From a virus, in the IMG/VR virus record IMGVR_UViG_3300021406_000010, positions 64,001 to 128,000 of that record: DNA of 64,000 nucleotides; one strand, given 5' to 3'. Made by a program: the position numbers and the translations under genes. Below the pieces are notes generated by a model, which had not been told where the DNA came from, searched no databases, and was given only the letters and a program-made list of their open reading frames with translations. Of this stretch, positions 21,889-58,679 are shown piece after piece (position 1 is the stretch's first letter; every line of letters begins with the position of its first letter).

Positions 21889-23661
21889 CTAGTCGTCCCC
21901 GCCGGGGTCGACGTTCCAGGCCGGCTCGTTGCGACGGGGCTCCTCGTGCCGCCTGATGTCGTCCTCGTGGGAGGCGTAGAACTTGTCGGCCACCTCCTGC
22001 GCCACGGCGGACAGCCCGCCGATGGTGGCCGCGAACTCCTTCAGCTCCTCCGCCGGCGGATCGTTGACGGGTGCCTCCTCGACACGGGCCACGATGCCCG
22101 TGAAGTCCTCCGCGAGCCCCTCGAACAGGGCCGGGAGGCCGGCGAAGAATCCCATGATCGACGCGGCGTTGTCGAACTGGATCCCGCTGAGGACCTCGGA
22201 GACGTGGTCCTTCAGCTCCGTGAGCGCCGGTGATGGTGATGGTGCCATGTCGTGCTCCTCTGATGGTGACGGGGGCGGCGGGCGGTCACCGCCCGGTCCG
22301 TGCCCGGGGTCAGGCCGGGCCCTCCTGGACTCGTAGGTGACCTCCGGCCCGGGGTCATCCACTGGCGATGTTAGCAAGGAAAGCCTCATCCCGCGAACAA
22401 GCCGGAACAGCCGGCGCAGGCGGTGCTTCCACCTGCGGTACAGGCGCCCGACCAGCCGGACCAGCCGGAAGTCCCCGTTCCCGCCGGCCCGCCAGGTCAT
22501 CAGCTCCGGGTCCGGGCGCGGCGGCGAGGGCCGGAACCGGAGCCTCGGGCACGGGATGGCGCCCCGCCGGCGCCACGACCACCGCAGCCCGCGAGCGCCT
22601 CCCCGGGCGGCACCGCGAGCCGCCGTCCAGGGCAGCCTGCGCCACCGCACCCTCGCCGCCCCCCTCCTGGCCCAGTAGAGCGGGGACAGCGGGGGGACCC
22701 ACCCCAGGCCGCGCGGGCGCGGCGGGCGGCCGGGCATGCCACCCCGGCCGCCAGGCGGGCGGAACGCCGCCCCGGAGCGGGAGGCGCCCCGGGACCGGGC
22801 GCCGCCAGCCCGGGGCACGCCGCCTGGGCGGCGCCCGGTCCCGCCGGGATGGCGGCTCCCCCCGCCGGGGATGCCCCGGGACCGCCCGGCCGCCATCCCC
22901 GGGAGGCGGAATGACGACGGGCGGGACCCTCCGGGCATCCTGCCCCGCGCCGGGGCGCCCCAGCCGGGCACCCCGGAGAGGCGCGCCCCGCGAGCGGAAC
23001 CGCGCGAGGGACTCGCCCCGGCGCGGGGACGCGCGCCCCCCGGCCAGGGCAGGTGCATGCCCCACGGGCGCAGGCTTCCCGCGCGAAACGGGTGCGCACT
23101 CCCCGTGCGGAATGAGTGGCCGCCTCCTGCACGGGAGAGCGCCGCGCCCCCTGTGCGGAAGAAACGTGCACCCCCCGCACGGGAAGAGGCCGCACCCCCT
23201 GTGCGCACCCCCCTGTGCGCACCCCCGTGCGCGGCGCTACCCCCCGGGGGTAGCGCGCCCCCCGGGCCGCGCCGGCGCGAGCTGCCCGCACCCCCGGAGA
23301 ACCGCGCCGGCGCGCTCTGGGCGGCCATGCGCAGCCAGGGCACGCGCCGCGCGATGCGGGGCGCGCCGCTCATCAGCGCACGCGCCAGCGAAGCGCCCCC
23401 CTGGCGCACCCCCCGGGGGCCGCGCCGGCGCGGCATGCCGCCGCCTCGCCAGTTCCGGGGGTGCAGCCGGCGCAGTACCGCGCCGGCGCGGCGCAGCCTG
23501 CGCCGCACGTGCCGCAGGACGCGGGGCGACACCGCGACGCCGCCGCCCGCTGCCAGGCCAGCCCCCCAGCCGGCCAGCCGCGCGGTGCCTGCCGCCGCCA
23601 GGATGGCCAGGAAGACCACGATGGCGGCCCTCCTGGCCCGGACGGCGTCCCACTTACCCAC
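21889..23661 (-). CDS. Membrane-anchored Arg/Gly-rich protein with a plasmid TraA-like helical C-terminal domain
   Basis: N-terminal TM helices, low-complexity middle, C-terminal HEDDIRRHEEPRRNEPAWNV; internal starts at 22362 and 22248. Confidence 0.55.
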   Translation of the reverse strand: MGKWDAVRARRAAIVVFLAILAAAGTARLAGWGAGLAAGGGVAVSPRVLRHVRRRLRRAGAVLRRLHPRNWRGGGMPRRRGPRGVRQGGASLARALMSGAPRIARRVPWLRMAAQSAPARFSGGAGSSRRRGPGGALPPGGSAAHGGAHRGVRTGGAASSRAGGARFFRTGGAALSRAGGGHSFRTGSAHPFRAGSLRPWGMHLPWPGGARPRAGASPSRGSARGARLSGVPGWGAPARGRMPGGSRPSSFRLPGMAAGRSRGIPGGGSRHPGGTGRRPGGVPRAGGARSRGASRSGAAFRPPGGRGGMPGRPPRPRGLGWVPPLSPLYWARRGAARVRWRRLPWTAARGAARGGARGLRWSWRRRGAIPCPRLRFRPSPPRPDPELMTWRAGGNGDFRLVRLVGRLYRRWKHRLRRLFRLVRGMRLSLLTSPVDDPGPEVTYESRRARPDPGHGPGGDRPPPPSPSEEHDMAPSPSPALTELKDHVSEVLSGIQFDNAASIMGFFAGLPALFEGLAEDFTGIVARVEEAPVNDPPAEELKEFAATIGGLSAVAQEVADKFYASHEDDIRRHEEPRRNEPAWNVDPGGDD

Positions 23662-24902: not shown

Positions 24903-24975
24903 CGTGAAGTGTGACCCTCGCGGGGTGTGATCCTGGCATGGCAAGGATCATTGCCCGCGAGGGTCACACTTCACG
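24903..24975. promoter_or_regulatory. Perfect 22-bp inverted repeat within TCACAC repeats, between divergent transfer genes
   Basis: CGTGAAGTGTGACCCTCGCGGG (24903-24924) and its reverse complement (24954-24975). Confidence 0.8.
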
Positions 24976-25025
24976 GCCCGCAACTCACACTCCGCTGGCA
25001 AGGAAAGCTAACATTGGAACTCGTG

Positions 25026-27086
25026 ATGGATCACATGGATCACAGTGCGCGCGTGCGGGTCGTCACCTCCCGCGCGGACCCGGGCGCGGGACAGCCCGTC
25101 GCGGCAATGACGCCGCCCGGCGCCGCGCCGCCGCACAGGGCGAGGGCATGGGCGCACGCGGCCGAGACCGCCTTCGCCGCCGCGCTGGCCGTCACCGCCG
25201 CCACGGTCATCGCGCCGCGCGCCGGGGCCCCCGGCTGGGCGGTCCCGCTGGTCTCCGAGCTGACCGGTCTCGTCATCGCGGTCATCGCGCGCAGCCAGCG
25301 GCGCAGCGCGCTGGCAGGCTGCTGCGCCGCGATGGGAACGTTCCTCGCCACGTGGGGAGGTCTGGCCGGAGCCGACCCGTGGCGGTCCCCGCTGCTGATC
25401 GCCTGGCTGGCCGGGATGGCGGTCCTGGTGCCCGCCGTCGCCAGCGTCGCCCGCCGCCGGGACCGCGACCCGGAGCCGGCCATCACGCCGCCCACCCCGG
25501 AGGACGAGCACGACGCCGAGATGCGCAAGTTCGAAGCCATGCTCGCCGACCACGGGTGCGAGGTCCGGGTGCTCACCCTGTCCGAGGGACGGGCAGGGCG
25601 GGTGCTGCAGCTGGAGCTGCCCCTGTCGGGGAAGGTGACCCTGGGCCACCTGGAGTCGATCGCCGTCAACATCGGCGTCAGCCTGCGGCTGCGCCACGGG
25701 GCGGTCGAGTTCGCGGCGGGCGCCCACTCCGGCCTGGTGACCATGAGGCTCCGGGAGCGCAACGTCCTCGCCGAGGTCCCCGTGCTGACGCCCGAGCTGC
25801 GGGCCAGGACGGTGAACAGGCCCTTCGCCGTCGGCATCAGGGAGGACGGCCCGCCGCACTGCATCACGGTGCGGGAGCTGAACTGGCTCGTCGTCGGGAC
25901 CCTGGGGGCAGGCAAGTCGACGTTCCTCAACACGGTCATCCTCCAGCTGGCGTCCTGCCCGGACGCGGTCCTGTGGGGCATCGACCTGAAGGGCGGCCGG
26001 ACGATGAGGGCCTGGCTGCAGGCGTGGGCCGAGGGGAAGGCCCCCTTCCCGGCGCTCGACTGGATCGCCACCACCCGGGCGGAGGCGAACCTCATGACCA
26101 TCGCCTTCGAAGCAGTCTGCAACGCCCGGATGAACAGCGGCCGTGGCGGCAGCAAGATAGCCCCGAACCGCAACATGCCGCAGGTCGTGCTGTTCAACGA
26201 GGAGGCATCCTACCTGTACTCGACCGACCGGGGGACCCGCAAGGAGCTGATCATGGAGCTGGGCGAGGAGGAGGGCGCGAAGGCCACGTCGAACACGGAA
26301 TTCATCGCGCGGGCCAAGCGCACCAACCCGGGAACCCGGTCGGAGGCGGCGACCTACTTCTGGGCCACCCAGCGGGGGACCGCGTCGATGGGCGGCAGCG
26401 CCGACCTCAAGGCCCTCACCCGGGGCCGGGTCGCCCTCGGCGTGACCACTGAGGGCGAGCTGCAGCACGTCATCCCGGGAGTGCGGGCCGGCCGCAAGAC
26501 GCTGGTGGCGCTGGGCGCCCCCGGGGTGGGGATGACCGCCGTCGGCACCGACAGCAGCGGCCTGGTGAAGTTCTTCCCCACCGACCACGTCGCTGGACAG
26601 TGCAGCGAGAACGGCAACGACGGCTGCGTCCCCGCCTGTCCCATCTACGCGGCCAGCATCGAGGTCGGCCCGGTCCGCCCCCCGCTGGACGAGGTTACGG
26701 CCGCCGGGGTGGAGGAAGCGCTGGCCGCCGCCGGGCACCCGGGCGCGTACGCCCGCCGCTGGGACCGGGCCGCCGCGATCCTCGGCCCGATGGCCGCCGG
26801 CCGGAGCGAGTCGCCCGGGAGCGCGGACAGGGCGCGCGAGGTGGCCAGCCGGGCCCCGGAGCGGGTGCACCCGGCCAGGATCCGGGCCCGGAACATCCTC
26901 GCCTCCCGGGGGGTGGAAGGCGGGACCACCAAGTACCTGATGGACCGGATCAGGGACGAGGGCATCCCGCTGGTAGAGCGCGAGACCTTCCAGCGGTGGC
27001 TCGCCGCCGATGACGAGGCGGGCATCATCCACCACGCGAGGTTCAACCGGTGGGTGACCGGCCCGGCACCGGAGAAGAAGGACTAG
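25026..27086 (+). CDS. TraB/FtsK-SpoIIIE-like DNA translocase
   Basis: N-terminal TM helices, Walker A GTLGAGKS, WGIDLKGG, Walker B VVLFNEE, ATQRG, C-terminal wHTH. Confidence 0.85.
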   Translation: MDHMDHSARVRVVTSRADPGAGQPVAAMTPPGAAPPHRARAWAHAAETAFAAALAVTAATVIAPRAGAPGWAVPLVSELTGLVIAVIARSQRRSALAGCCAAMGTFLATWGGLAGADPWRSPLLIAWLAGMAVLVPAVASVARRRDRDPEPAITPPTPEDEHDAEMRKFEAMLADHGCEVRVLTLSEGRAGRVLQLELPLSGKVTLGHLESIAVNIGVSLRLRHGAVEFAAGAHSGLVTMRLRERNVLAEVPVLTPELRARTVNRPFAVGIREDGPPHCITVRELNWLVVGTLGAGKSTFLNTVILQLASCPDAVLWGIDLKGGRTMRAWLQAWAEGKAPFPALDWIATTRAEANLMTIAFEAVCNARMNSGRGGSKIAPNRNMPQVVLFNEEASYLYSTDRGTRKELIMELGEEEGAKATSNTEFIARAKRTNPGTRSEAATYFWATQRGTASMGGSADLKALTRGRVALGVTTEGELQHVIPGVRAGRKTLVALGAPGVGMTAVGTDSSGLVKFFPTDHVAGQCSENGNDGCVPACPIYAASIEVGPVRPPLDEVTAAGVEEALAAAGHPGAYARRWDRAAAILGPMAAGRSESPGSADRAREVASRAPERVHPARIRARNILASRGVEGGTTKYLMDRIRDEGIPLVERETFQRWLAADDEAGIIHHARFNRWVTGPAPEKKD

Positions 27087-27754
27087 GACGGCGGCGGGAC
27101 CGCCGCCGCGACGGCCCGGTCAACGTCATCCTCGAGGGGGCCGCGCTCTTCCTCCCCCGCCACCAGCTGGCCGGTCAGGTCATGGATGGCGGAAAGCCGC
27201 CGCAGGGTGTCGGCGTGCCGGCCCGCGATGGCCTCCAGGCGGCGCCCGGCGACCTCGCTGACCGCCGTGGCGCGGGCGGTCGCCTCGTCGGTCACCCTCT
27301 TCGCCTCCTCGCGGGCGCCGGCGAGCACCACGTCCGCCTGCTGCCGCGCCCCGGCCGTAAGGGAGTCCGCCTCCCGGGCGGCCTCCGTGACCGACTGGCG
27401 GCCCCGGGCGGTGGCGTCCGCGAGGATCTTCTCCGCGTCGGCGAGCGCGGCTGCCCGGTTGCCCTCGATCTCGGCCGCCGCTGTCCGCAGCACGTCCTCG
27501 ATCAGCTGCTGGCCCTGAGGGCTCTCCGCTCCCCGCAGGAGGGCTCCCCCCGCCTCCCTGACGGCCCTGGCGGCCCGCTCCTCGGCGGCCCGGACCCTTT
27601 CCAGCAGTGCCAGGATGACGCGGTCCACCTGGCCGGGATGATAGCCGTCGGGAACCCGGTCGAAGCGGCGCGGGTCGGGGGCGAGCGCGCCCGGCGGGGG
27701 AGCCGCCGGCTGGGGGCCTGTCCGGCCTTGCCTGGGAGCGGGGGGAGTGGCCAA
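27083..27754 (-). CDS. DivIVA-like coiled-coil protein
   Basis: FDRVPDGYHPGQVDRVI matches the DivIVA F...GY...VD motif; long Ala/Glu coiled coil. Confidence 0.65.
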   Translation of the reverse strand: MATPPAPRQGRTGPQPAAPPPGALAPDPRRFDRVPDGYHPGQVDRVILALLERVRAAEERAARAVREAGGALLRGAESPQGQQLIEDVLRTAAAEIEGNRAAALADAEKILADATARGRQSVTEAAREADSLTAGARQQADVVLAGAREEAKRVTDEATARATAVSEVAGRRLEAIAGRHADTLRRLSAIHDLTGQLVAGEEERGPLEDDVDRAVAAAVPPPS

Positions 27755-27767
27755 CGGGTCCTCCTGA

Positions 27768-27956
27768 TAACGGCCCGCTGTACGTCCCGGGCTCTATCGC
27801 CGGGACCGTCACCAGCGGCCCCGGGACGACGGGGCCGCGAGGGGCGGGGGTGCTGCACTGCACCCTACCGGGGAACACCAGGATCCGCTGGGCTTGCGTG
27901 AAGCAGGCAAGGACGGGACTGGCGGCGAGGGCCGCCGACGCCAGCTGGACGGCCAT
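27768..27956 (-). CDS. Small hypothetical protein whose credible coding region ends at a TTA codon
   Basis: TGATG overlap with the upstream gene; after TTA (27770-27768) the frame runs out of phase through the DivIVA-like gene. Confidence 0.4.
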
Positions 27957-28529: not shown

Positions 28530-29354
28530 TCAAGAGACGGGGTCCGCGATCGGGACCGCGACCACGTCGTGCGAGCCGCAGGTGCGGCACTGGAAGACCG
28601 CTCCGCTGCCGTGGTTCCCCTGCCGGAGCTGCAGGTTCGACAGGCTGTTGTCGTGCTTCTTCCTGTTGTCCTTGTGGTGAACCGTTTCGTAGTCAGTAAG
28701 CGGGCGGCCAAGGGCCTTGGCCATCACCAGGCGGTGCTGCATCACGTAGCCGTTGACGCCCGGCGGGCACAGCAGGGCTTCCTCCGGCGAGGGCATGACC
28801 ATGGTGTATCCCTCGACGATCCTGATCCCTCCCTTCCAGTTGTGGTGGTCCTCCCTGGCCCTGTACCGGTTTGACCTGGTGTCCACCCCGGCTCGCCGCA
28901 GGGTCCCCCTGATCGTGATCGGGTTACCGCCGTGCTTCCTGGCTAGTTCGGCTAGGGAGGTCCCGGCCTTGAACTCCTCTGCCAAGACAGCAGTCTGCTC
29001 CTCGGTAAAGCGGTGGTGCTTGCCTCCCAGGCGGGGCGTGATCCCGGCCTCGCGCAGCACCAGGGAGACGGTGGTGTCCCTGGCGTGGACCAGGGCGGCG
29101 GTGTTCTTGACGCTAGTGCCCTCGTGCCAGAGCCGGATGATCTCGGCCCGGTTCTCCGGGGTGTCGTGCCAGTTGTACTCGGCACTGGGACGGCCCCGGC
29201 GTTCGATTCCCAGGCGCTTGAGGGCTGCGATGACCGGCACGGGAGAGGTCCCGTAAATGTCGGCGACCTGCTGAAGCGTCTTGCCGGCCTGATAGTGGCA
29301 GGCAATCTCGGCGTCCTGCTCGGGTGTGAAGAGTGGTTTTTTCCCTCTTGGCAT
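28530..29354 (-). mobile_element. HNH endonuclease with three N-terminal HTH repeats
   Basis: HHNWKGG, GYVMQHRLVM, ETVHHKDNRKKHDNSLSNL; lower-GC upstream flank. Confidence 0.88.
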
Positions 29355-29878: not shown

Positions 29879-30068
29879 CGGACTGTGCTCCCGTCATCGC
29901 GTCGCAGGTCCCGTCGGGGCACCCGGCCGCCGCGCAGCAGGCGAAGTGGCGGCCGACCGTCACCAGCCCGTCGTCGCCGGGCACCACCACCTGGTGGTGC
30001 GGCTGGTCGTCCACCTGGTGGCAGCCGTCGCACTCGCGCAGCTCCCGGGGCGGCTCCGGGGCGGTCAT
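29871..30068 (-). CDS. Small Cys/His-rich protein
   Basis: CDGCHQVDDQPHH...HFACC...C...C. Confidence 0.55.
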   Translation of the reverse strand: MTAPEPPRELRECDGCHQVDDQPHHQVVVPGDDGLVTVGRHFACCAAAGCPDGTCDAMTGAQSGV

Positions 30069-30134
30069 AGGTCCCTCACGCTCCTTCCGGGGCCGGCGTG
30101 GCAATCACCGTGCGCACCGAGAAGAGAATGGCGC

Positions 30135-30355
30135 ATGAGCATCAAGCTCCTGCGCCGCCGAAAGCGCAGATGGCTGTGTCCCTTCTGCGGTTCCCCGTTC
30201 TTTGTCATCACTGCGGGGCTAATACGCAAGAGAAACCATCTGCCTGGACTCACGAGCATCGACGGGCTGCTTACCTGCGCGGAATGCGGCCTCGGCGTCG
30301 GATACGAGGATTTGGTGCGGCTAGAGCGCACCGGGAGATTAGCGAGCCCAGGTAA
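30135..30355 (+). CDS. Zn-ribbon protein (TTA at codon 69; zero-frame stop only at 30518)
   Basis: CPFCG...CAECG; lower GC than its neighbours. Confidence 0.5.
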
Positions 30356-31360
30356 CCACGTGCACCAGCAGGCCGAGGCGGCGCAGCCCTGCTTGGAGTC
30401 CAGCCGCCGCAGCTCCACGACCGTGACCTGGCCCCACGGGACGAGGGGGACGACCGGGACGGAGACGCCCGTCCGCAGCGCGACGGTCACGGTCCGCACG
30501 GCCTTGCCGGAGCGGTAGAAGGTCACCTGCACCGCCGCCCCGTCATCCCCCGCCAGGGACAGCAGGCACCCACGGGGCGCCGCCAGGACCGGGACGGCTA
30601 CCGGGCCGCCGCCAGGCGGCAGCTGGACGAGGGCCTCCATCTCCGGCGCGGCGGGCAAAACCGGGGGAACAGGGACAGGAGGAGGCGCGGGGGCGGGGAC
30701 CGGGGCCTTCGGGGGCGCGGGAAGCGCGATGCCGGCCAGCTGGGCCGCCGACCCGTGGAACGCCGAGCAGTCGACCGGGCCGGAGATCCCGGCGATAGAC
30801 GCCGAGGGGGTGAACTGCAGCAGCGCCGGCGACCGGCCACCGTACGGCGCCCACCAGGAGGCCGGGACCCTGCCGTAGAGGGCTGCCGGGTCGCCCGAGC
30901 CGCTGACGTACTCGCTGGCCCACAGCCAGTCGGCAAACGTCAGGTCCATCCCCGCCGTGTACCAGTGCGGGGCGTAGGCGCCGATGCGGTGGCCCGGGTA
31001 GCAGTGCCGCAGCCGGGCGGCGGCGTCGACCGCCTGCTGCCGGGTGGGCGGCCCGTCGGGGGCGCGCTCGTAGTCGATGACGACCCCCCAGCCCGCCAGG
31101 TCGCCGGCCACGTCCGCGAAGTGCTGCGCCTGGTCCGCGCCCGCCCCGGAGGCATCCAGGAACAGGTAGGCGAGCGGGATGAACCCGTGGCGGGCGGCGG
31201 CGGCCATCGACGTCCGGGCGGCTGCCCACCTGGGGTTGACGTAGCCGGTGCCCTCGGTGACCTTCTCGGCCCCGCCGCCGCAGGTCGCGGCCACCCGCCC
31301 CCAGTCGGGGGCGCCCTGCCAGGAGGAGCAGTCGACAAGGTACGTAATGGATCCGGTCAC
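30339..31360 (-). CDS. GH25 muramidase endolysin (zero frame continues to 30065 after a TTA codon)
   Basis: VDCSSWQG, KVTEG, VIDYE, LWASEY, LLQFT, VDCS; Pro-rich linker. Confidence 0.88.
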
Positions 31361-45355: not shown

Positions 45356-47176
45356 CTAAGCGAATGCGCCGAGAGTGTTGATGGCCTTCGTGACCAGGAC
45401 GACACCGCCGAGGACGGGCAGCGCTGCGGCGGCCATGGTCACGGGAAGCGGGTTCCCGGCGGAGTCGACGTACGAGGCGATCGTCACGCCCCCCAGGACC
45501 TGCTGGATCCCGACGTCGTAGTTGTTCGCTGCGGCGCCCGTGAAGCCGGGGTAGTCGGCCCCGGTGAGGAACCGGCAGGCGGTGATGCCGGGGGTGCCCT
45601 CCACTGCCTGCAGGACGCTGGACGGGTACACGACCGCCCCGAACCCGATGGCCCCGAGCCAGGAGGACAGCGCCTGGGTGACGGCCGCCTGGGCGGTCGC
45701 GGGAGTGGCTCCCGGGTCGTAGACGACCGCCAGGCTGAACTGCAGCTGCAGCTGGATGGCCTGGTGGGCCTGCACGTCGGTGCCCGCCAGCCGCCAGTTC
45801 TCCAGCTGCTTCTGGATGGCGGCGGGGACGTCGTTGTAGGTGTAGCCGTCGCTGATCGTCAGGGGGGTCCCGCCGGGGGGCTGCATCCCGGCGGCCCACT
45901 CCAGGCCGAAGTCGGAGTAGGGGGACCAGCCGAAGGCCCCCGTCCGGTGGGCCACCTGGTAGGCATAGCTGACGCCGCCCGCGACGCTGCCCAGCGGCTG
46001 CGCCAGGGTGGCCTGCCCGTAGGTGACCCCGTTGACGACCATCACCGGCGGGACGGTGAGGACCGGGCCCCATGGCAGGGCGATGAAGGCGTTCCCGGGG
46101 GCGGGGGAGCTGCCGTCCGGCCGGGTGAAGGACCCGGCGTACCAGGGGGAGGAGCCGGAGGCGGAGAAGACGGTGGCGGCCGAGAACCTCAGCGACGCGG
46201 CGGCGGCCATGGGGCGCTGCCCGGAGCACCAGACGTCGACCCGGCTGTAGATCCCCTGCGCCGGGGAGTTGCGGGAGTAGGCGTCCATGTACAGGAAGCT
46301 GACGTCGATCAGCTGCCCCTGCGGGAAGTAGGAGGCGTCCACCACCTGCACCGAGGGCGGGCTCGCGGCGGAGTTCCAGGTGTACTGCAGGCCCGGGGCG
46401 GCCACGTCCCCGTTGTCGATGTCGCGGCCCACCACCTGGCCCGCCGGGTAGGTGAACTGGGCGTCCGGGATGGTGGTGGCGGCCTGGCCGCCGGACACCT
46501 GCAGCTGCTCCCGGTACCTGGTGGCGCCGTCGATGACGTTGGCGGCGGTGCACTCCGGGTCGGCGAGGGCGATCCCGAGGAACATCTGGCTGGTGCCGGC
46601 CATCGACCGGAACGCGGTGGCGCTCCAGCGGGCCTGCAGCTGGGCGTCGGCCTCCTGGCTCGCGCCGCCGGACAGCGCGTTCAGGTTGGTGACCCCCGAG
46701 ACCTCGGAAACCGGGGTGAGCAGCTGGGTGAGGGACCCGGCCGCCGCGTTCCCGGCGGGGCCTGCGATCACCGCCTGGACCGGGAGGGTGACTGACAGCG
46801 CCCCCGGGTTGAGGATCCCGGCGGTGACCGTCTGGATCACCACGGTGCCGTCGGCGGTGGCCACCTGGGTGGCGACCGGGATGGTGACGACGTCGGTCGC
46901 GGTGCCGCGCGTGAAGGTGACGGTGCCGTAGGAGCGGGCGGCCGGGTACCGGGACAGGCCGAACAGCTGGACGAAGGCGTCGAGGTCCGCGCCCGCCTTC
47001 GAGGTGACGTCGTAGCTGTAAGCGAGCATTTGCTGGTCTATGGTGGCTGATGACACCGACGCGGCCACCACGTCGATGATCTTGCGGACCACGCTGCCCA
47101 GGGAGGTGTCCAGGTCGGGCACGCTGGCGGCGAGCACCGCGATCATCTGGGACGCGACGTCAGCCTGGCTGGCCAC
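45356..47176 (-). CDS. Baseplate J-like protein
   Basis: GADLDAFVQLFGLSR, AGPAGN, GGASQEADAQLQAR. Confidence 0.88.
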   Translation of the reverse strand: MASQADVASQMIAVLAASVPDLDTSLGSVVRKIIDVVAASVSSATIDQQMLAYSYDVTSKAGADLDAFVQLFGLSRYPAARSYGTVTFTRGTATDVVTIPVATQVATADGTVVIQTVTAGILNPGALSVTLPVQAVIAGPAGNAAAGSLTQLLTPVSEVSGVTNLNALSGGASQEADAQLQARWSATAFRSMAGTSQMFLGIALADPECTAANVIDGATRYREQLQVSGGQAATTIPDAQFTYPAGQVVGRDIDNGDVAAPGLQYTWNSAASPPSVQVVDASYFPQGQLIDVSFLYMDAYSRNSPAQGIYSRVDVWCSGQRPMAAAASLRFSAATVFSASGSSPWYAGSFTRPDGSSPAPGNAFIALPWGPVLTVPPVMVVNGVTYGQATLAQPLGSVAGGVSYAYQVAHRTGAFGWSPYSDFGLEWAAGMQPPGGTPLTISDGYTYNDVPAAIQKQLENWRLAGTDVQAHQAIQLQLQFSLAVVYDPGATPATAQAAVTQALSSWLGAIGFGAVVYPSSVLQAVEGTPGITACRFLTGADYPGFTGAAANNYDVGIQQVLGGVTIASYVDSAGNPLPVTMAAAALPVLGGVVLVTKAINTLGAFA

Positions 47177-47982: not shown

Positions 47983-50900
47983 CTAGAAGTCGAGCGGATA
48001 GGTGCCGAAGATGCGGACGGTGTCTCCTGCCGTCGCGTCGTAGACGTGCACGACCCCGGTGCTGAGCATCTCGCAGACCAGCGGGATGCCGAGGAACGGC
48101 GACCCGGCGTTCTGCACGCAGCCTAGCGGCTGGTTGGAGGCCGGCCAGTAGGCGGCCGGCAGCGCCACGGTTATGTTCGAGTTATTCGCGACTCCGGAGG
48201 GGACGTTGAGGATTCCGGAGACCATGACCGTGTTGTCGGACCTGTACTTGTACTTGAAGGTCCCCGTCCAGCTGTTCGCGAGGGAGAACGAGTGGGGCAC
48301 CTCGGGCACCGCCGGGATGACGCCCGGCTGGAAGGCGGTGACCGGCCCGGTGTACCCGGCCGCGTAGGCGTTGCCGCCCGGGTCGGTGCCCGCCTGCGGC
48401 GACAGGGCGCACTCCAGGACTGAGCTGGACACGTAGGTGATCTTCACCTGGCCGTCGGCGCCGGATCCTCCGATTGGCTGGGAGCTGGACCCGGAAGTGC
48501 CGGTCACCGTGACGGAGGCCGAGCTCGCTCCCCCGGCGAAGTACCCGTACTGGGTGAGGTCCGGCTCGGAGGTGGACGGGCCGGTCATCAGCGACTTGGC
48601 CGCGCCGGACTTCAGGGCCGCCCCCAGGCCGGGCGGGTTGATGACCTTGGTCGCGCCCTCGGTGATGCCCGCCTGGTACTGGCCGTGCTTGTCGCCTGAG
48701 CCGAGCGAGGAAATGGTCCCGGGGAACGACGTCCGGTTCGACCACCCGAAGGTGATCGTCATGCCGCTGCCGTACCAGGAGTGCTGGTTGGTGATCTTCA
48801 CCGACGCGGACGTGATGGTCACCCCGGACAGGTCCGACTGGACCGATGAGGGCAGCAGCCAGAACCCGAACTGGTTGCCGGCCGGAGCGCCGCTCGACGC
48901 CCCCTGGTAGACGGAGCCGCCGGCGTTCCGCTGGGCCCCGCCGATGTCGGTGCCGTAGTACGACGCTGAGCTGCTGGCGTTGTAGGTCCTGCTGAACGGC
49001 GAGGTAGTAGTGGACTGCCCGGAGCCGCCGCCGCCGCCGCCAGGGCCGCTGCCGCTGGCCCCGCTTGCCGCGCTGCCGCCGCTCGCCCCGCCTGCGCCGC
49101 CGCCGCCCGCGCCCGCAGCCCCGCCAGGGCCGTTGTAGACGCCGTTGCCGCCCGCCCCGGAGGGGCCCCCGGAGCCGCCGCCGGAGCCGCCGTCCGCGTG
49201 GCCGCCGGTAACTCCCATGCCGCTGCCGCCGTCGTGGTGGATGGTGTTGGCCGACCCGGTGCCCCCGGCCCCGCCCGTCCCCTGGGCGGGTGAGGCGTCT
49301 CCCCCGTTGGCGTAGACCCCGGTCCCGTCGAAGAAGGTGTCGCCGCCGCCCTGCCCGTCGGAGTTGCCGGTGTACGCGCCGTTGCCGCCGTTGCCGACGG
49401 TGTAGCTGTAGGTGGTGGCCCCGGTCGGGTCGAGGGGGTAGCTCGGCTCGCAGGCGTACTCGCCGGCTCCCCCGCCGTCCTGGCCGGTAGTGCCGTTTCC
49501 GTGGTTGGCCCCGGCGGCGGCGCCCCAGCACTCGATTTTCCCGGACGGGATGCCGGGCGGGGGCGTGAAGGAGTAGGTTCCGGCGGCGGGCTGGGTGATG
49601 GTCGTGGTGGTGGTCGTGTAGGCGTAGAGCACGCCGCCGACGGTGTCGAAGGTGATGTCGGTCTCCGTCATCGTCCCGCCGGAGATGGCGGTCGCGGCGA
49701 TGGTGGAGGCGGAGATGGACCCGTCCTGGAAGCTTCCGCTGGCGATGGAGCAGGAGTTGACGTTCAGCCCGGAGATGCCGCCCTGCGCGACGAAGAGGCC
49801 GGCGGGGTAGGGGTTCCCCTGGCCGTCGGCGCCGGCCGCAGCCGACCACGACCCGATGAGGTTCCCCAGTGCCGGGGTGCCGGAGTAGACGAGGATCTCG
49901 CCGGAGGTGCCGAAGGCGATGAACTGGCCGCCCTCGATGGTGGTGCCGTCGACCACGCCCGCCAGGACGATGCCCGCCGCGATCTGCTCGGCGGTGATGG
50001 TCCCGGCGGCGATCTGCGCGGCCGTGATGGTTCCCGCCGCGATCTGCGCGGCCGTGATGGTATTGGCGGCGATGAGCGCGGCGGTCACCGACCCGGCCGC
50101 GATGGACTGGGTGCCGAACTGGAACGGCACCCAGTTGGAGCCGTTCCAGGTGGTCAGGGCGAAGCCCTGGTTGCCGTTGAACCACAGGTCGCCGGCGGCC
50201 GGGGACGAGGGCTGGGAGAACCCGACGCTGGTGGTGACGCCGCCGATGTCGGAGGCGGTGAAGTCGACCTGCCCGGGGGTGATGCCCGCGTTGGCGGCCA
50301 GCTGCAGGGCGGTGAGGCTGCCCGCCGCGATGGCCCGGGAGCCGAACTGCAGGAGCCGCCACCCGCCCCCGTCCCATACCGACACCGAGTTGCCCTGGGC
50401 CGGGTTGATCCAGATGTCGCCCAGGACCGGGGCCGGCGGCTGCGACGTCCCGGTGATCACGGAGGTGCCCCCGAGGTCGGAAGCGGTGACGGACAGCTGG
50501 CCGGCGGTGATCCCGGCGGCCGGGGCGAGCTGCGCGCCGGTGATGGTGCCGGGTGCTATCTTGGCCGCCGTGACGGCCCGGTCGGCGATGGCGTTAGTGC
50601 CGACCTGCAGCGGCACCCACCGGGACCCGGACCAGCTTGTGAGGGCGTTGCCCTGCGCGGCGTTCACCCACAGGTCCCCGGGCGCCGGGGCTGCGGGCGC
50701 GGCGGCGGAGGCCGTCACGGCGGGCGCGGCGGCGGCGGGGAGGTCTGCCGGGGAGGCAGCGGCGAACGCGGCGAACGTCCACGTGCCCAGGTCCTGGGTG
50801 ATGATCCACATCTCGCCCGGGGCCGGGGGCGGCGCCTTGCTGCGCTGCATCAGCATCGTCACGGCGACCTGGGTGCCCTGCCGGTCGACGGTGATGGCGG

Positions 50901-50997
50901 TGGCCCCGTCGGCGGATATCGACCGGACGGTGACCAGCTTGGCGGACAGGCCGACGCTGTGGGTGGCCGGGTTGAGCGGCTGGCGGGGAGCGGCCAT
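47983..50997 (-). CDS. Tail fibre/spike protein with internal repeats
   Basis: 3x GD(L/I)W.N..QG....W.G..W modules, ITAAQIAAGT repeats, Gly-rich region. Confidence 0.8.
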   Translation of the reverse strand: MAAPRQPLNPATHSVGLSAKLVTVRSISADGATAITVDRQGTQVAVTMLMQRSKAPPPAPGEMWIITQDLGTWTFAAFAAASPADLPAAAAPAVTASAAAPAAPAPGDLWVNAAQGNALTSWSGSRWVPLQVGTNAIADRAVTAAKIAPGTITGAQLAPAAGITAGQLSVTASDLGGTSVITGTSQPPAPVLGDIWINPAQGNSVSVWDGGGWRLLQFGSRAIAAGSLTALQLAANAGITPGQVDFTASDIGGVTTSVGFSQPSSPAAGDLWFNGNQGFALTTWNGSNWVPFQFGTQSIAAGSVTAALIAANTITAAQIAAGTITAAQIAAGTITAEQIAAGIVLAGVVDGTTIEGGQFIAFGTSGEILVYSGTPALGNLIGSWSAAAGADGQGNPYPAGLFVAQGGISGLNVNSCSIASGSFQDGSISASTIAATAISGGTMTETDITFDTVGGVLYAYTTTTTTITQPAAGTYSFTPPPGIPSGKIECWGAAAGANHGNGTTGQDGGGAGEYACEPSYPLDPTGATTYSYTVGNGGNGAYTGNSDGQGGGDTFFDGTGVYANGGDASPAQGTGGAGGTGSANTIHHDGGSGMGVTGGHADGGSGGGSGGPSGAGGNGVYNGPGGAAGAGGGGAGGASGGSAASGASGSGPGGGGGGSGQSTTTSPFSRTYNASSSASYYGTDIGGAQRNAGGSVYQGASSGAPAGNQFGFWLLPSSVQSDLSGVTITSASVKITNQHSWYGSGMTITFGWSNRTSFPGTISSLGSGDKHGQYQAGITEGATKVINPPGLGAALKSGAAKSLMTGPSTSEPDLTQYGYFAGGASSASVTVTGTSGSSSQPIGGSGADGQVKITYVSSSVLECALSPQAGTDPGGNAYAAGYTGPVTAFQPGVIPAVPEVPHSFSLANSWTGTFKYKYRSDNTVMVSGILNVPSGVANNSNITVALPAAYWPASNQPLGCVQNAGSPFLGIPLVCEMLSTGVVHVYDATAGDTVRIFGTYPLDF

Positions 50998-53624
50998 CAG
51001 GGGCCGGCCGTCCCTGTCCCGGGCAGCGGCAGGTTGGTGCCCGCCGTGAGGCCCCCCGCTACCGGCAGGCCGATGAGCTGGCCGCCGGAGTTGTTGCCGC
51101 TGCCGGGCAGCCGGGCGGGGGCGGCGATGTTCACCTGGGTGGTGAAGGACCCGCCGGGGCCGGTCTGCCAGGTGTGGGTGACGGTGGTGACGTAGGCCTG
51201 GAAGCCGTAGGCGGGGACCTGCAGCAGCATGCCGGGCCACAGCTCCGGCATGAAGGTGAGGGCGACGTCGGAGTTGTACTGGTAGGCCCAGCTCCTCATG
51301 AACAGGAACAGGGCGGAGAAGAACTCGCCCGACGGGCCGATGACCCCCGGCATCTCCTCCAGGTCTGGGCGGGCGCCGAACCGGCCGTAGACGTAGCTGA
51401 TGAACTTCTGCGCCTGGGCGGCGGTCGGCTCCAGGCCGAACAGGGCGTACATGATGGCGGGGATGTCGATGGTCGCGATGCCGGTGGTGGACAGGGCGTA
51501 GATGACGTCGAGGGGCAGCGTCTGGCCGGTGGCGGACAGGGTGATCCCGGACGCGGTGCCGCTGCCCAGGTCGACCTGCTGGGCGGGCGGCGCGACCACG
51601 TACTGGTGGGTGACCAGGTTGGTGTCGTCCCACGTGACGCTGAAGTCGATCAGCTCGATCGGCTCGACCTGCATGATGGCGGCGGTGCCCCAGATCCCGT
51701 AGTAGTCGGGGAACCACGCGATCAGGTCCCCGTTGGGGGCCGAGCAGTAGCTCCGCATGCAGGACCCGAGCAGGTTGCGGATGTAGGGCAGCAGCGGCTG
51801 GTCGTTGAGCAGGACGCGCGGCCCGGTGAACACGGCGGAAATGGCGGCCGACTCGGAGTCGAACGTCGGGAACCAGGGACTGGGGCCGAACAGCTTGTCG
51901 AACTGGTCGTTCGGGTTGTACCACGGCTGGGTGGAGGACGGGGATACTTGCAGCGCCTGCCCGCTGGCGGTCGCGGAGACCGCGCCGCCGGAGGTGAGGG
52001 CGCCGCCCGTCGGCACTGACTTGAACGCGGCGACGGTGCCGTTGTAGGCCGAGTAGTCGAACCCCGGGGCCAGCCCGGCGCACGTCCAGTAGGAGGCGGC
52101 GTTCCCGACGACCCCGGCGAATGTCCCGGTGTGGTGGGCGCCGACCGTGCTGCTGCCGGTCCCGGTGCTGATCTCGACGTGGCTGGACGCGCCGGGGCCG
52201 CCGAGGAACATCAGCGCGCCGGGGATGTTCATCCCCGCCTGGGCGGACACGATCTGCCCTGACGACTGGCACCAGGCGCTCTGCTCGGCGGCTGTGCGAG
52301 GGCACCCGCCGAGGCTGCCGAGGGCGTGGAAGACGCACCACTGGACGAACGAGGAGCAGTCGAGCTGGGTGGGGACCGCCACGTTGGGGGCGGAGTCGCC
52401 GCCCAGCTGGTAGGGGATGTGCGGGTCGGACTGGACCAGCCCGAGGGCGGTGCCGAGCAGCTGGGTGCAGCTGGCCTTGCCCGCCTTGGCGTTGGAGGCG
52501 AGCGGGGCGAAGCCGGGGGAGTTGCCGAGCGAGCTGGCTCCCTGGGCATTGGACAGGACGCCGACGATCTGGGTGGCCATGTTCAGCCACTGGTCGTAGT
52601 ACGCCTGCCCCTGGGCGGCGGTGTTGAACGCCACCTGGACCATGTTCGCGACCACGCCGGGGTCGATCGACGCCCGGTTGCCGATCTTCAGCTCCACCGA
52701 GAAGAACTTCTGCGTGGCGTAGGTGACGTTGGTGACCTGCGCCACCGTCCCCCACCCGGCGGCCGGCCGCTGCTGGAACAGGCCGTAGGCCCCGTCAATG
52801 TTGGGGGTCGGGATGTTGGTGAGGGTCGACTCCCCCATGGCGGTCTCGATGCCGATGACCGCGTCCCGGGTGGTGCCGCCCATCTGCAGCGCCGTGTTGT
52901 AGATCAGCACCGCGAGGGAGGCCTGGGTGGCGTCGAGGCTGAACCCGGCGTACGTCCCGGCCTTCAGCGCCCCCGACGGGACGGTCCCGCCGCCGCCCCC
53001 GGGCAGCGAGCCGCCAACCGACCCGCCAACCGTCCCGGCCGCCCCGAGGGTGGCGTAGAACTGCTGGGCGAGGGCGTCGGCCGCCGCCGTGTCCGCCTTG
53101 ACCGCCTGGGCGATCTTGTACGCCCACGCGGTCCAGCCCTGCGGGATCCCGGCGATGTGGACCTTCTCGGCCGGCCAGCCGGTGACGTTCTGCAGGATGG
53201 CCAGCACCGCCGCCGTGACGCCCCCGTCGTCGGGGTTCTTGGCGCTCGCCATCGCCTGGGCGACCATGTTCTGCGAGGCGGCGAGGCCGGGGTCCCAGAA
53301 CCAGTACTGCAGCCTCTTCAGCGAGCACGACGCGGTCAGCTGCACCGACGTGGGCCAGGCGGTGACCAGCGGGACCGAGTTCAGGTAGCCGGTGAAGACC
53401 CTGAGCCAGGTGATCCGCTTCATCATGACGATGATCCGGTCGTTGGGAACGAATATCCCGGTGTACTTCCGGAACGGGTTCTGCAGGGTGAAGGCGAAGG
53501 TCGACACCCCGTCGGAGCGGCGCACCATGGTCCCCTGGGTGACGTCGTCGCTGATGTCGATGATCCCGTTGGCCTGGGTGAGGATGTAGATCTTGCAGGC
53601 TGGCGAATACATCAGGACCGCCAC
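50997..53624 (-). CDS. Baseplate hub with lysozyme-like and NlpC/P60 peptidoglycan hydrolase domains
   Basis: AMGES...YGLFQQRP..GWG; YQLGG..LDCSSFV...HVEI. Confidence 0.85.
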   Translation of the reverse strand: MAVLMYSPACKIYILTQANGIIDISDDVTQGTMVRRSDGVSTFAFTLQNPFRKYTGIFVPNDRIIVMMKRITWLRVFTGYLNSVPLVTAWPTSVQLTASCSLKRLQYWFWDPGLAASQNMVAQAMASAKNPDDGGVTAAVLAILQNVTGWPAEKVHIAGIPQGWTAWAYKIAQAVKADTAAADALAQQFYATLGAAGTVGGSVGGSLPGGGGGTVPSGALKAGTYAGFSLDATQASLAVLIYNTALQMGGTTRDAVIGIETAMGESTLTNIPTPNIDGAYGLFQQRPAAGWGTVAQVTNVTYATQKFFSVELKIGNRASIDPGVVANMVQVAFNTAAQGQAYYDQWLNMATQIVGVLSNAQGASSLGNSPGFAPLASNAKAGKASCTQLLGTALGLVQSDPHIPYQLGGDSAPNVAVPTQLDCSSFVQWCVFHALGSLGGCPRTAAEQSAWCQSSGQIVSAQAGMNIPGALMFLGGPGASSHVEISTGTGSSTVGAHHTGTFAGVVGNAASYWTCAGLAPGFDYSAYNGTVAAFKSVPTGGALTSGGAVSATASGQALQVSPSSTQPWYNPNDQFDKLFGPSPWFPTFDSESAAISAVFTGPRVLLNDQPLLPYIRNLLGSCMRSYCSAPNGDLIAWFPDYYGIWGTAAIMQVEPIELIDFSVTWDDTNLVTHQYVVAPPAQQVDLGSGTASGITLSATGQTLPLDVIYALSTTGIATIDIPAIMYALFGLEPTAAQAQKFISYVYGRFGARPDLEEMPGVIGPSGEFFSALFLFMRSWAYQYNSDVALTFMPELWPGMLLQVPAYGFQAYVTTVTHTWQTGPGGSFTTQVNIAAPARLPGSGNNSGGQLIGLPVAGGLTAGTNLPLPGTGTAGP

Positions 53625-53710
53625 GGGCCGTCCCCTCCGCCGTGCCGCCTGATCCACACGACGATCAGCATCGCCGCCAGCACCCCCAGGACCAGCAGGA
53701 GCGCGCTCAC
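53612..53710 (-). CDS. Tiny single-TM peptide
   Basis: VSALLLVLGVLAAMLIVVWIRR; GTGA overlap. Confidence 0.35.
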   Translation of the reverse strand: MSALLLVLGVLAAMLIVVWIRRHGGGDGPWRS

Positions 53711-54339
53711 GGGCCGGTCCCGGTCAGGTTCGGGGGCGGTCCCTGCCCGGGGGCGTAGGGGATCGTGACGGGCGACGACGGCGCCACGGTGCCGTAGTTG
53801 AACGGCACCTGGGTCCCGGACAGCTGGTCGCCGAACGGGTAGAAGTACTGGATCGCCGGGTCGGACGCGAACGCGCTCCACTTGTTGACGACGGAGCTGG
53901 CGGCCACCACGGCGGGCTGGTGGGGCGACAGCCCGGCCTCGAAGATGAACTGCGGGGTGAACATCATCATCCCGGTGTGCGCTCCCCACTCGTAGCCGAC
54001 GAGGGGGATGCCGTGCTCGGTGAAGCCCCGCGACGGCACGGTGACCACCATCAGCGGGAAAGACGTCCAGGTGATGTTGGGGTCCAGCACCAGCTGGGCG
54101 AAGGACGCCATCCAGGCGTTGAAGTCGAGCCGCTCGTCCCAGTCCTTCAGCAGCACCTGGACGGAGAACTGCTGGCGGGCGCTCTTGTGCGGGTAGTAGG
54201 CCCGGGTGGTGCGGCCCTGGTCCTCGGCGGAGATCATCTGCACGCCGTGGGACAGGTCCCCGGCGCGCACCTGGTAGGCGTGGGTGACGCCCTGGGCGTC
54301 GGGGTAGCTGAACGTGGCGTTCAGGCCCTGCCGCGTCAT
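53707..54339 (-). CDS. Tail/baseplate structural protein
   Basis: Position in the tail module; coding bias. Confidence 0.65.
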   Translation of the reverse strand: MTRQGLNATFSYPDAQGVTHAYQVRAGDLSHGVQMISAEDQGRTTRAYYPHKSARQQFSVQVLLKDWDERLDFNAWMASFAQLVLDPNITWTSFPLMVVTVPSRGFTEHGIPLVGYEWGAHTGMMMFTPQFIFEAGLSPHQPAVVAASSVVNKWSAFASDPAIQYFYPFGDQLSGTQVPFNYGTVAPSSPVTIPYAPGQGPPPNLTGTGP

Positions 54340-54569
54340 CAGCGGGGCCGTGCGTCGATGCCGGCGGAGTCCATGACGACGGGCCCGGCGGCGGCCGGGG
54401 CGTAGACGGGCACGGCGAGGGACTCGTACTCGGCGGCGGTCATGTCGGGGACCAGCCGGTACTGGGTCATCCCGAACCCCATCATGGGGACCATGACGGC
54501 CTCCCCCGCCGGGAGCGGCATGGATATCGGGACGTCGGACGCCCAGGCGGGGCGGTCGGCAACGGGCAC
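54339..54569 (-). CDS. Small tail-module protein
   Basis: GGAGGAGG RBS; TGATG overlap. Confidence 0.6.
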   Translation of the reverse strand: MPVADRPAWASDVPISMPLPAGEAVMVPMMGFGMTQYRLVPDMTAAEYESLAVPVYAPAAAGPVVMDSAGIDARPR

Positions 54570-54605
54570 GGGGACCTCCTCCCTACTTCCGGGGAGGAGC
54601 CTCGC

Positions 54606-55213
54606 CTAGGGCCCGCCGAGCGTTCCTGTTGCCTGGCCGTTGAATTTTGTGAACTTCCAGCCGATTCCGTCGGATATGCGGGCCATGAAGGCGCTCACCG
54701 CGTCGTAGGCCTGCTGGGAGAAGGCCCCGTTGGTGGTGCCCGCCTTCACCAGCGACGGGCTGCCGTCCTGCACGATGAACAGGGTCAGGACGTACTGGTG
54801 GGAGAACTTGCCGTAGCGCATGATCACGCTGGCGTCCCCGTCGGGGTCGGCGAGGCCCTTGACGTAGACCAGGAAGTTCCAGTTGCGGGGCGGATAGGAG
54901 AAGACCGCCGGCGGGTGCATCTGGGCGTTCGCGGTGGCGTCGGCCGACTGGGCCTCCATGATGGCGGTGATGCCGCCGAGGAAGGCCTCGGCCTGCTGCC
55001 AGCTCTCCCCCGTCACGGCGTCGGAGTGGTCCTGGCCGAAGGACCCGCGCACCGTCAGGTCCGACAGCCGCGAGCCGGTCACCTGGATGACGCGCCCGCC
55101 GATGGTCTCCGTGACGGAGGTAAGAGGACCTCGTAGCTCCAATCGATCGCGTCAGGATCGATTCGGAAGGCTATCGAGGGGCCGCCCGGATATCCGAGCG
55201 TGGCAGTTCCCAT
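54606..55213 (-). CDS. Tail tube initiator-like protein, needs a +2 shift at CTC-TTA (55126-55121)
   Basis: Strong SD + ATG 55213 gives MGTATLGYPGGPSIAFRIDPDAIDWSYEVL, continuing in another frame as TSVTETIGGRVIQV. Confidence 0.7.
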
Positions 55214-55318
55214 AAGGCACCACCTCCCTTCAGTGCCCTGGCCCTGGCGAGCGATCCCCTGGCAAGGGCAAGTTGCTTCAGCGTCTCGGGCGTTTCGTCG
55301 TCCCTCCTTCCGGGCCGG

Positions 55319-57217: not shown

Positions 57218-57229
57218 GGGACCACGTCC

Positions 57230-58128
57230 TCACGTCCACTCGGGATGGGGCTCCGGGGCCGGCGGCGGCGGCCGGGACGGCTCGCGGATCGTCACCCGGC
57301 TGCTGGCGGCCACCAGTGACTCGAGCGCGGCCATGTCGGAGGCGAACGAGGCGGGGGTGGCCCTCTCCAGCCGCAGGGCGCTCCCGGCGGGCGGCGTCCC
57401 GTCCCCGGGGGCGGGAGCTTCCTCGAAGTGACCGGGCCACGCTTCCAGGGCGCTGACCAGGCCGGAGGCGACCGCTGCGGACAGGATGAGGTCCTGGCGG
57501 TCCTGCAGGCGGCGCCCCTCGTCGAGCCAGTGCAGGACCTCGGTGGCGGCCAGGCAGGCGCGGGGGAGGTGCCGTCCCGACAGCTGCCCGCGCCTTTCCG
57601 CCAGCCGCAGCTGCTGCTCTACCCAGGGATCGCAGTGCCCGCCGGGGCTGGTGCTTTTCCCAGGGCCTCGATCACCTCCCGCTGGCGGACCTCCAGTGCC
57701 AGGTAGGCGGTGAAGATCGCGTCAATCGTCGGCGGGAACCACCGGCGGGCGTAGTTGTACCGCTCGTAGGCCCACTTGCGCTCCTGCCCGGGGTGCTCGC
57801 CGAGCGGCACCGGCATCGGCTGCCCGTCGATGGCGGTGACGCACATCCCGGCCATCGCCGTGGCGTAGGACTTGGCGCCGCCCAGGCCGCCCTCGTGGTC
57901 GCGGACCAGCGACGCGACGAGCAGCTCCTCGTCGGTGGTGAGGGTCTTCAGCTCGATCCGGTGGCCGCACCAGTCGAACCACGCGGTCAGGTACCCGAGC
58001 CGCAGCAGGCCGGTCAGGTCGTCGCGCCACGAGCCGGTGTCCGGCTCGTCGAGGTGCAGGTCGAGGACATCCTCCGGCGGCGGGACGGCAGACGCCGCCG
58101 GGGATTCCTCGTCGGGGAACGCGGTCAC
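57230..58128 (-). CDS. Tail assembly chaperone, -1 frameshift-extended form
   Basis: G-GGA-AAA slippery site at 57661-57655; the -1 frame is open to TGA at 57230 (..DPWVEQQLRLAERRG..). Confidence 0.85.
57619..58128 (-). CDS. Tail assembly chaperone, short form
   Basis: 169 aa, between the tube and tape measure genes. Confidence 0.8.
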   Translation of the reverse strand: MTAFPDEESPAASAVPPPEDVLDLHLDEPDTGSWRDDLTGLLRLGYLTAWFDWCGHRIELKTLTTDEELLVASLVRDHEGGLGGAKSYATAMAGMCVTAIDGQPMPVPLGEHPGQERKWAYERYNYARRWFPPTIDAIFTAYLALEVRQREVIEALGKAPAPAGTAIPG

Positions 58129-58304
58129 GCCGGGCTGCCTCCCCAGCGCAGCTGCATGGCCTGGCTGCGCATCCGGAGGTTCGGGTCCTCCTGCTCGAGG
58201 GAGACGCTGGCGGAGGTCGCGCCGGGCACGGTGACCGTCACCTCCGCCGAGCCGGTGGCAGTGCCGTCCGGCCCGGTGACGGTGGCGGTGATGGTGACGA
58301 TCAC
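58125..58304 (-). CDS. Small beta-rich protein
   Basis: GTGA overlaps on both sides; Thr/Val-rich. Confidence 0.5.
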   Translation of the reverse strand: MIVTITATVTGPDGTATGSAEVTVTVPGATSASVSLEQEDPNLRMRSQAMQLRWGGSPA

Positions 58305-58612
58305 GCCGGCAGCGCGGGGATGACGCCGGTGAAGACGGCGGTGCCCGCGACGTTGGACTGCTGGGTGTAGGCGGTGCTGACCGAGTCGGACACCGCGACG
58401 GTGAGCGGGAGGGCGGGAGCCGCGCCGGCGGTGTAGGTGGCGCTGCCGGTGGACGCGGTGCCGTCGAGGGCGGTGACGCTCGCGGTGACGGTGACGGTGA
58501 CGCCCGGGTTGGCGGGGTCGAGGTACTCGACGGTGACGGTGATCGGGTCGCCGACGGCGTAGGCGGCCTTGTCGGTGGCGACGGTGACGGCGGGCGGCAC
58601 GGGGGTGGTCAA
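58301..58612 (-). CDS. Ig-like virion decoration protein
   Basis: VATDKAAYAVGDPITVTVEY; GGAGG RBS, TTG start. Confidence 0.65.
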   Translation of the reverse strand: MTTPVPPAVTVATDKAAYAVGDPITVTVEYLDPANPGVTVTVTASVTALDGTASTGSATYTAGAAPALPLTVAVSDSVSTAYTQQSNVAGTAVFTGVIPALPA

Positions 58613-58679
58613 GGTTCCTCCACGGGCGGGGCGGGCAAGGGGTCTCACTTCTTCCGGGGGGCATCGCTATGCTCGCTGC

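Follow-up and report, generated by a model that had tools for sequence, protein, structure and literature searches.

Probable occasional use of UUA as a stop signal in a soil phage, at the end of its endolysin gene, and in related phages

Two convergent genes and their facing TTA codons

The virus record, contained in soil metagenomes, is 166,488 bp long with 71% GC and is rated 100% complete; the window, the stretch of 64,000 nucleotides analysed here, corresponds to its bases 64,001-128,000. The site under study is the junction of a minus-strand GH25 endolysin gene and a small plus-strand Zn-ribbon gene (Table 1). An earlier note on this DNA had described, at 30339-30355, a 17-bp segment in which each gene meets TTA instead of a stop, and re-reading of the sequence placed the 17-mer at exactly this position. 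The lysin TTA was present in contigs of run X1, which is possibly the source of the record, in a contig from run X2 spanning 30145-30462 with 0 differences and in JGI contig L005, which shows 0 mismatches to the window over 2,465 nt. A sequencing or assembly error was thereby ruled out. RNA run X5 and DNA run X3 leave the site uncovered and are silent on it.

Table 1. Features of the lysin/Zn-ribbon junction and of the other TTA-bearing genes of the window.
Feature	Position	Strand	Support or remark
GH25 endolysin, 335 aa to W335	30356..31360	-	PF01183, 85 homologues, AF2 model
TTA in place of the lysin stop (proposed functional stop)	30353..30355	-	homologous loci, strain P0112
Run-on frame (95 codons past TTA), translated only with UUA as Leu	30065..30352	-	ATGA overlap with next gene
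Possible hop route: landing TGG (30350-30348), GCT, CGC, TAA	30339..30350	-	would add Ala-Arg
Zn-ribbon gene, CxxC..CxxC, 68 aa	30135..30338	+	L004 and 10 aligned homologues
TTA at the end of the Zn-ribbon gene (less well supported)	30339..30341	+	TAG in +1; aligns with Leu of L004
Spacer, 11 nt, between the facing TTA codons	30342..30352	.	sequence
Inferred insertion of ~248 bp bearing the inverted Zn-ribbon gene	30107..30354	.	composition, junction similarity; boundaries inferred
Possible orphaned ancestral TGA, the spacer after it resembling that of homologues	30105..30107	-	sequence comparison, inference
62-aa gene upstream of DivIVA-like gene, ending in TTA (27770-27768)	27768..27956	-	another terminal TTA of the window
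Putative tail tube gene, starting with ATC after a strong SD	59366..59897	-	7-nt gap from TTA, 59810-59804
Gene after putative tape measure, 2-nt insertion giving CTC-TTA at 55126-55121	54606..55213	-	

The lysin ORF runs on the minus strand from 31360 to 30065, and its codon 336, immediately 3' of W335, is TTA. The encoded protein matches PF01183 over residues 9-160 (43 bits versus a curated cut-off of 27) and consists of a catalytic domain, a Pro-rich linker and a C-terminal β-strand domain. The latter is shared by 85 homologues, all of which end at the residue equivalent to W335; the 96-codon run-on was found in none of them, and only the protein of this phage continues past the domain. At the homologous loci the TGG is followed by TAA, TAG or TGA, and the lysin of strain P0112 (JGI 3300050821; 333 aa, same 90% cluster), 94% identical in the C-terminal domain, ends with W and an ordinary stop. 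Isolated phages match the lysin in the GH25 domain only, with ~35% identity. The database entries for this lysin are 431 aa long. In its AF2 model the last strand covers residues 328-334, and the pLDDT is below 50 for residues 340-431, where the run-on tail is without alignment support. The run-on frame has a negative codon score and terminates at a TGA overlapping the ATG of the following gene. The earlier note had suggested that the lysin C-terminus could depend on how UUA is read and had pointed to homologous C-termini as the relevant comparison; the homologues without tail, together with the other UUA-dependent sites of the genome described below, bear this out.

In the Zn-ribbon ORF, which starts at the ATG at 30135, TTA is codon 69 and follows AGA, and a run-on of 58 further codons lies beyond it. 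TAG stands immediately in the +1 frame and AGG-TAA is found 14 nt downstream; the AGG-TAA, like TGG-GCT-CGC-TAA in the shifted frame of the lysin, had been read in the earlier note as well. Its homologues indicate that the gene is real, and the phage family to which it belongs is mostly 62-89 aa long with a variable end. A homologue search in the 90% database gave no match, and no copy was found in five relatives, in a search run without positive control. The case for the TTA as the end of this gene is the weaker of the two, given the adjoining +1 TAG and the Leu of L004 that is aligned with the TTA.

The segment had been presented as a reciprocal 17-bp overlap. The sequence is as described, but the reciprocity is no independent design feature and adds no evidence, because any TTA is TAA on the opposite strand and the 14-nt offset is symmetric. 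Under the standard code the lysin and Zn-ribbon ORFs overlap by 384 nt, and with TTA as the end of both the overlap is zero; the arrangement is more aptly described as two TTA codons that face each other across 11 nt, each at the end of one of the convergent genes. Neither the plus nor the minus frame which ends in an opposite-strand TAA is coding (codon scores of -15.5 and -13.6, respectively), and terminal TTAs as by-products of the TAA stops of convergent genes were thereby ruled out.

The segment taken as an insertion has 61% GC versus 75-77% in its flanks, and the spacer measures 34 nt at the P0112 locus versus 284 nt in the window. Its right junction possibly consists of the displaced stop and spacer. 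The lysin TTA probably arose with or after this ~248-bp insertion at the old stop and would have been kept since UUA terminates. The same event could be seen as an ordinary loss of stops, in which the insertion destroyed both of them, UUA is read as Leu, and a disordered tail of 96 residues, whose stop overlaps the start of the next gene, is tolerated on the lysin. The insertion is indeed real relative to strain P0112, a Leu codon of L004 is aligned with the Zn-ribbon TTA, a stop-free antisense tail has a chance of ~25%, and the candidate hosts have a tRNA-Leu(UAA) and read TTA as Leu. We nevertheless consider this explanation unlikely: it accounts neither for the rarest codon standing so often exactly at the homologous stop in stop-less genes of eight phages nor for the TTA gaps of tail genes, which require an undecoded UUA.

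Terminal and internal TTA codons in eight related phages

This genome (G000) was compared with seven related phage records. In the conserved cores of the 8 phages TTA accounts for 4 of 179,313 codons, all in antisense or out-of-frame calls, and CTA for 85. TTAs preceded by coding sequence with homology support number 34: there are 16 terminal ones, 9 close to a gene end and 9 in the interior of conserved genes, each at a frame break or next to one. As the comparison shows, TTA takes the position of homologous stops, coincides with frame breaks and is missing from conserved cores. Exact homologous C-termini followed by TTA were found five times (binomial P ~1e-5, post hoc); counting TTA as a stop, it ends 5/333 exact ends and is thus used by a small minority. 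It also occurs in 13/145 windows with a missing stop versus ~2 expected, this test being post hoc as well.

Clear terminal TTAs with long run-ons are those of the lysin, of the 62-aa gene (window 27770), of the G012 sheath gene and of sites G000 47988 and 146021, G012 21519, G003 53580, G001 129250 and G004 22250; two more sites, G000 134032 and 41514, are listed without firm classification. The TTA at G000 47988 is supported by 5 homologues. The 62-aa gene has homologues in G012 and G013 whose stops come one residue sooner, and its run-on in the window is 196 codons. In the putative tail sheath gene of G012 (109264, L092), TTA stands where 7 homologues stop, with a run-on of 144 codons and TAA next in the +1 frame. 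The terminal TTA sites resemble normal gene ends: the median GC3 is 0.9 and the next genes start at +2, -5, -8 and +22; stop/start coupling is found there, including a TTATG overlap. No terminal TTA is shared by two of the phages in the same gene. The lysin TTA is lineage-specific, because the lysins of relatives with tail-gene gaps have ordinary stops. Taken together, this soil phage and those related to it probably employ UUA, on occasion, as a fourth stop.

Other genes near these sites were also noted. An FtsK/SpoIIIE-like membrane ATPase gene (window 24927-27754) is convergent with the DivIVA-like gene. Two helix-turn-helix genes of lower GC lie at 28530-29354 and 59961-60824; the first matches HNH weakly, and the second lies antisense, as an insertion, between the genes for the putative sheath and tube.

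Several of the near-end TTAs overlap an AT-rich motif which may be a promoter. This conserved motif of ~20 nt starts with TTA (G002 53477, G003 6091, G004 34591, G012 30795, G000 47681) and adjoins the tRNA array in G002-G004. Furthermore, one orthologous gene of five phages has TTA near its 3' end in repeated GTTACC words (L021, G000 45824-45832; G001 153015, G003 94377, G012 22061, G013 45871). In G000, decoding of this TTA fuses the gene to the next one; the words could be a DNA motif or serve translational control.

Two late genes of the window contain internal gaps, of 7 nt in the putative tube gene, named by gene order and without Pfam match, and of 2 nt in the gene after the putative tape measure. 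Both gaps are initiated by TTA and absent from intact homologues, and the junction is conserved. The tube gene is intact in 8 relatives and has differing TTA gaps (4-15 nt) in 4 others; the post-tape-measure gene is intact in L036 and L041-43 and carries a different TTA gap in G011. As read from these alignments, an intact product of either gene requires UUA to stay undecoded, which was also proposed for phiHau3 (PMC10732093). The gap-bearing tube genes have unusual starts behind strong SDs (ATC at window 59895-59897, ACG in G001, TTG in G011; L033 and L034, upstream of 6001). More TTA-initiated frame breaks were observed at G001 89757 (a baseplate-region gene), at G004 86455 and 86387 (a Zn-finger gene) and at G011 33588 (the post-tape-measure gene).

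Bypass must operate in this genome, in the tube and post-tape-measure genes, which speaks for a hop at the lysin end too. The ribosome would stall at UUA and re-pair from TGG to a TGG 8 nt on, add Ala-Arg and reach TAA; in the Zn-ribbon gene it would slip +1 to TAG or hop from AGA to AGG and reach TAA. Both genes do have a nearby shifted stop, a matched landing codon followed by two codons and TAA is present in the lysin, and the 8-mer after the lysin TGG is identical to the gap of the tube gene of relative G011. However, a TGG landing with a stop is found by chance at 4-5% of positions, the fold around the lysin TTA is nothing unusual (z 0.22), and no lysin homologue has residues after W. All ten internal TTA sites have AT-shifted upstream codons with a GC3 of 0.45-0.75 versus 1.0 upstream of the lysin TTA, which falls in the terminal class. 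No conserved coding resumes 3' of the lysin TTA, the homologues ending at W335, as would be required of a phiHau3-type gap. Most other terminal TTAs of the family are without matched landing codon and nearby stop. Most of them lack any nearby shifted-frame stop, several having none within 28-228 codons, and slipping to a stop is therefore not the general route. A hop at the lysin end is accordingly judged improbable.

Rescue by tmRNA at UUA would lead to degradation of the lysin, so that active enzyme would be made only when UUA is decoded and the TTA would delay lysis. This logic is opposite to that of the tube and post-tape-measure genes, which need an undecoded UUA, and the G012 sheath would be either tagged or burdened with a 144-residue tail. 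Unassigned terminal codons of recoded E. coli have more than one outcome, tmRNA tagging and degradation being the dominant one (PMC6207430); rescue has been discussed for bldA too, but few tagging changes were seen in a bldA mutant (PMC2635970). On balance, we find it very hard to credit that TTA acts as a tagging-dependent delay of lysis, and the routes put forward in the earlier note, a hop to CTWAR* or tmRNA tagging, are not supported as the main one: the terminal TTAs mostly lack a landing codon and stop, and the lysin lacks the AT shift. As recoded E. coli gives mixed outcomes at such codons, a mixture at terminal UUA is plausible in the phage.

Translation components of the phages and of the inferred host

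The seven relatives carry 33-40 tRNAs each, none of them Leu-TAA or Leu-TAG, and one tRNA of G011 has a CTA anticodon; G000 has no tRNA cluster and one doubtful tRNA-Arg at window 22745-22833. Five phage genomes yielded neither a release factor nor a Pth, and no prophage copy of this phage was found in GTDB. Three giant ORFs (L239, G000 48810-62820) contain five Arr-type ADP-ribosyltransferase domains as well as NUDIX and 2H domains, and a flavohaemoglobin-like phage protein has globin, FAD and NAD domains (L241:2328-3473; G000 149328-150476). The giant proteins, and the missing Leu-TAA in the tRNA sets of the relatives, would be compatible with a phage that itself abolishes UUA decoding or alters termination, for instance by modification of a tRNA or release factor, independently of the host state; UUA would end the lysin as in the preferred reading, with another cause. 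With no RF-like or Pth gene found and host features already offering a cause, such an action of the phage seems most doubtful.

The host clade is likely to be formed by MAGs of Streptosporangiaceae type, and probably not by Streptomyces, as suggested by one gene: the best matches of a DUF397-like phage gene, at 64-83% identity, are Streptosporangiaceae (one labelled Trebonia) and unclassified actinomycete MAGs. The bldA mutant which the earlier note had proposed for measuring lysin size may thus be the wrong test system, the host probably not being Streptomyces. In the candidate hosts, TTA represents 43/65,046 codons, as Leu, in regulators of WhiJ-like and LuxR-type families. No real TTA was found in 51,035 conserved codons around rpoB, and none of ~143 exact gene ends has a terminal TTA. 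A host-wide change of the genetic code was ruled out, TTA being aligned to Leu at 40/43 conserved host positions.

The candidate hosts retain a tRNA-Leu(UAA), which is the short-armed species of 75 nt noted for Streptosporangiales, with C33 in 26/27 copies inspected (L225:101-175; L243-L271). Position 33 of tRNAs is usually U; in tRNA-Leu(UAA) elsewhere it is C in Nocardiopsis and U in Amycolatopsis. The codon-reading tripeptide of RF2 was scored in 31 candidate-host MAGs and was SKY in 30 and SRY in 1 (example genes L300-L302 and L305-L307, that is, G032, G036, G044, G019, G047 and G015). Among the 64 other Streptosporangiales scored, an order-wide sample which leaves out the unpublished genome G068, it was SPF in 62, SAY in 1 and SQY in 1. 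RF1 of the candidate hosts is normal, and ArfB is present in 8/8 genomes examined. The commonest stop here is UGA, which RF2(SKY) must still read. A literature search with most subscription papers outside its reach found no published SKY RF2. As organelles that stop at UUA have altered release factors (PMC12574857), the change to SKY is a strong mechanistic lead for a possible release at UUA, and its restriction to one clade (SPF to SKY) makes the idea directly testable in vitro.

Proposed reading of UUA and comparison with known systems

We consider it rather probable that infected cells do not decode UUA as Leu but end translation at it, so that the lysin is made as a normal 335-aa protein. 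The codon would remain unoccupied and, in an ordinary context, peptide release would yield the native enzyme; the two convergent genes would then end tail to tail, the lysin at 335 aa and the Zn-ribbon protein at ~68 aa. Near the start of some tail genes, where the 5' context is AT-shifted, UUA would instead provoke a short ribosomal bypass. The protein released at a terminal UUA should be full-length and untagged, and release could be due to RF2 of the host (SKY variant) or to ArfB/drop-off, prevailing over a scarce and atypical tRNA-Leu(UAA). When this tRNA is active, read-through would produce junk tails and a broken tube, which would couple lysis and virion assembly to the state of the host. 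Terminal TTAs could be neutral once UUA terminates.

A wider scheme may be proposed tentatively, and we regard it as possible rather than likely. In an acid-soil actinomycete clade, RF2 (SKY), which would terminate at UUA, and a weak, regulated tRNA-Leu(UAA) would compete for this codon, so that UUA would be a dual stop/Leu codon in these bacteria; in their phages it would mark the end of the lysin and sheath genes and set off bypass in the tube gene, and lysis and virion assembly would follow the host state.

Stop-codon-recoding phages read TAG as Gln or TGA as Trp, and lysis and late genes are affected. The present family resembles them in that phage and host would read a codon differently and that lysis and late genes are concerned. 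It differs in direction, which is here from sense to stop, and in that no phage release factor was found.

UUA has become a stop in organelles, namely labyrinthulean mitochondria (NCBI table 23), peDinoflagellate plastids and Marsupiomonadales mitochondria (PMC12574857). As in these codes, UUA stands in the phage family at the stops of homologues (the lysin and 15 other sites, 8 phages) and is absent from gene interiors, and a release factor, here that of the inferred host, has a changed codon-reading region (PMC12574857), with a possible effect on UUA. The organellar change concerns 'Ser204' (PMC12574857), whereas in the host motif Ser is kept and PF is replaced by KY; the substitution differs. 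Unlike the organelles, these are bacterial phages, no more than a few percent of their genes end in UUA, and internal UUAs exist and are bypassed; moreover, the inferred host keeps tRNA-Leu(UAA) and the Leu meaning in regulators, so this is not a full reassignment.

UUA-triggered translational bypassing was described for the terminase of the Streptomyces phage phiHau3, with internal gaps and in 3/100 terminase genes (PMC10732093). The tube and post-tape-measure genes of the window are similar, with short UUA-started gaps in essential late genes that need an undecoded UUA. The lysin TTA differs in being terminal, with no resumption and no hop-site context, and in a host that is probably not Streptomyces.

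The role that bldA has in development may be confined to Streptomycineae (PMC4255298). As in the Streptomyces bldA system, TTA in the inferred host is missing from housekeeping genes and found in regulators, WhiJ-like ones among them, and this distribution lies outside the group in which a bldA role is expected (PMC4255298). In contrast to bldA, the tRNA of the inferred host is a 75-nt short-arm species with C33, and while Streptomyces TTA genes need decoding, these phage genes need non-decoding.

A terminal UUA in bacteria or phages was not found reported in the literature, most subscription papers lying outside the search. The same search met UUA as a sense-to-stop change in mitochondria and plastids alone and, for phages, UUA recoding solely in the form of internal bypass. 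What is added here, by computation throughout, is that a single family of 160-kb phages shows both uses of UUA, with a lysis gene among the targets, and a candidate for the cause on the side of the host. The results bear on the old bldA-type question of the fate of a ribosome at UUA when its tRNA is scarce. They also imply that, with standard gene callers, proteins of these phages receive false C-terminal tails and tail genes are split. If the proposed reading is correct, one codon serving as gene end and as hop trigger within a single phage family would join the organelle-type stop to the phage bypass.
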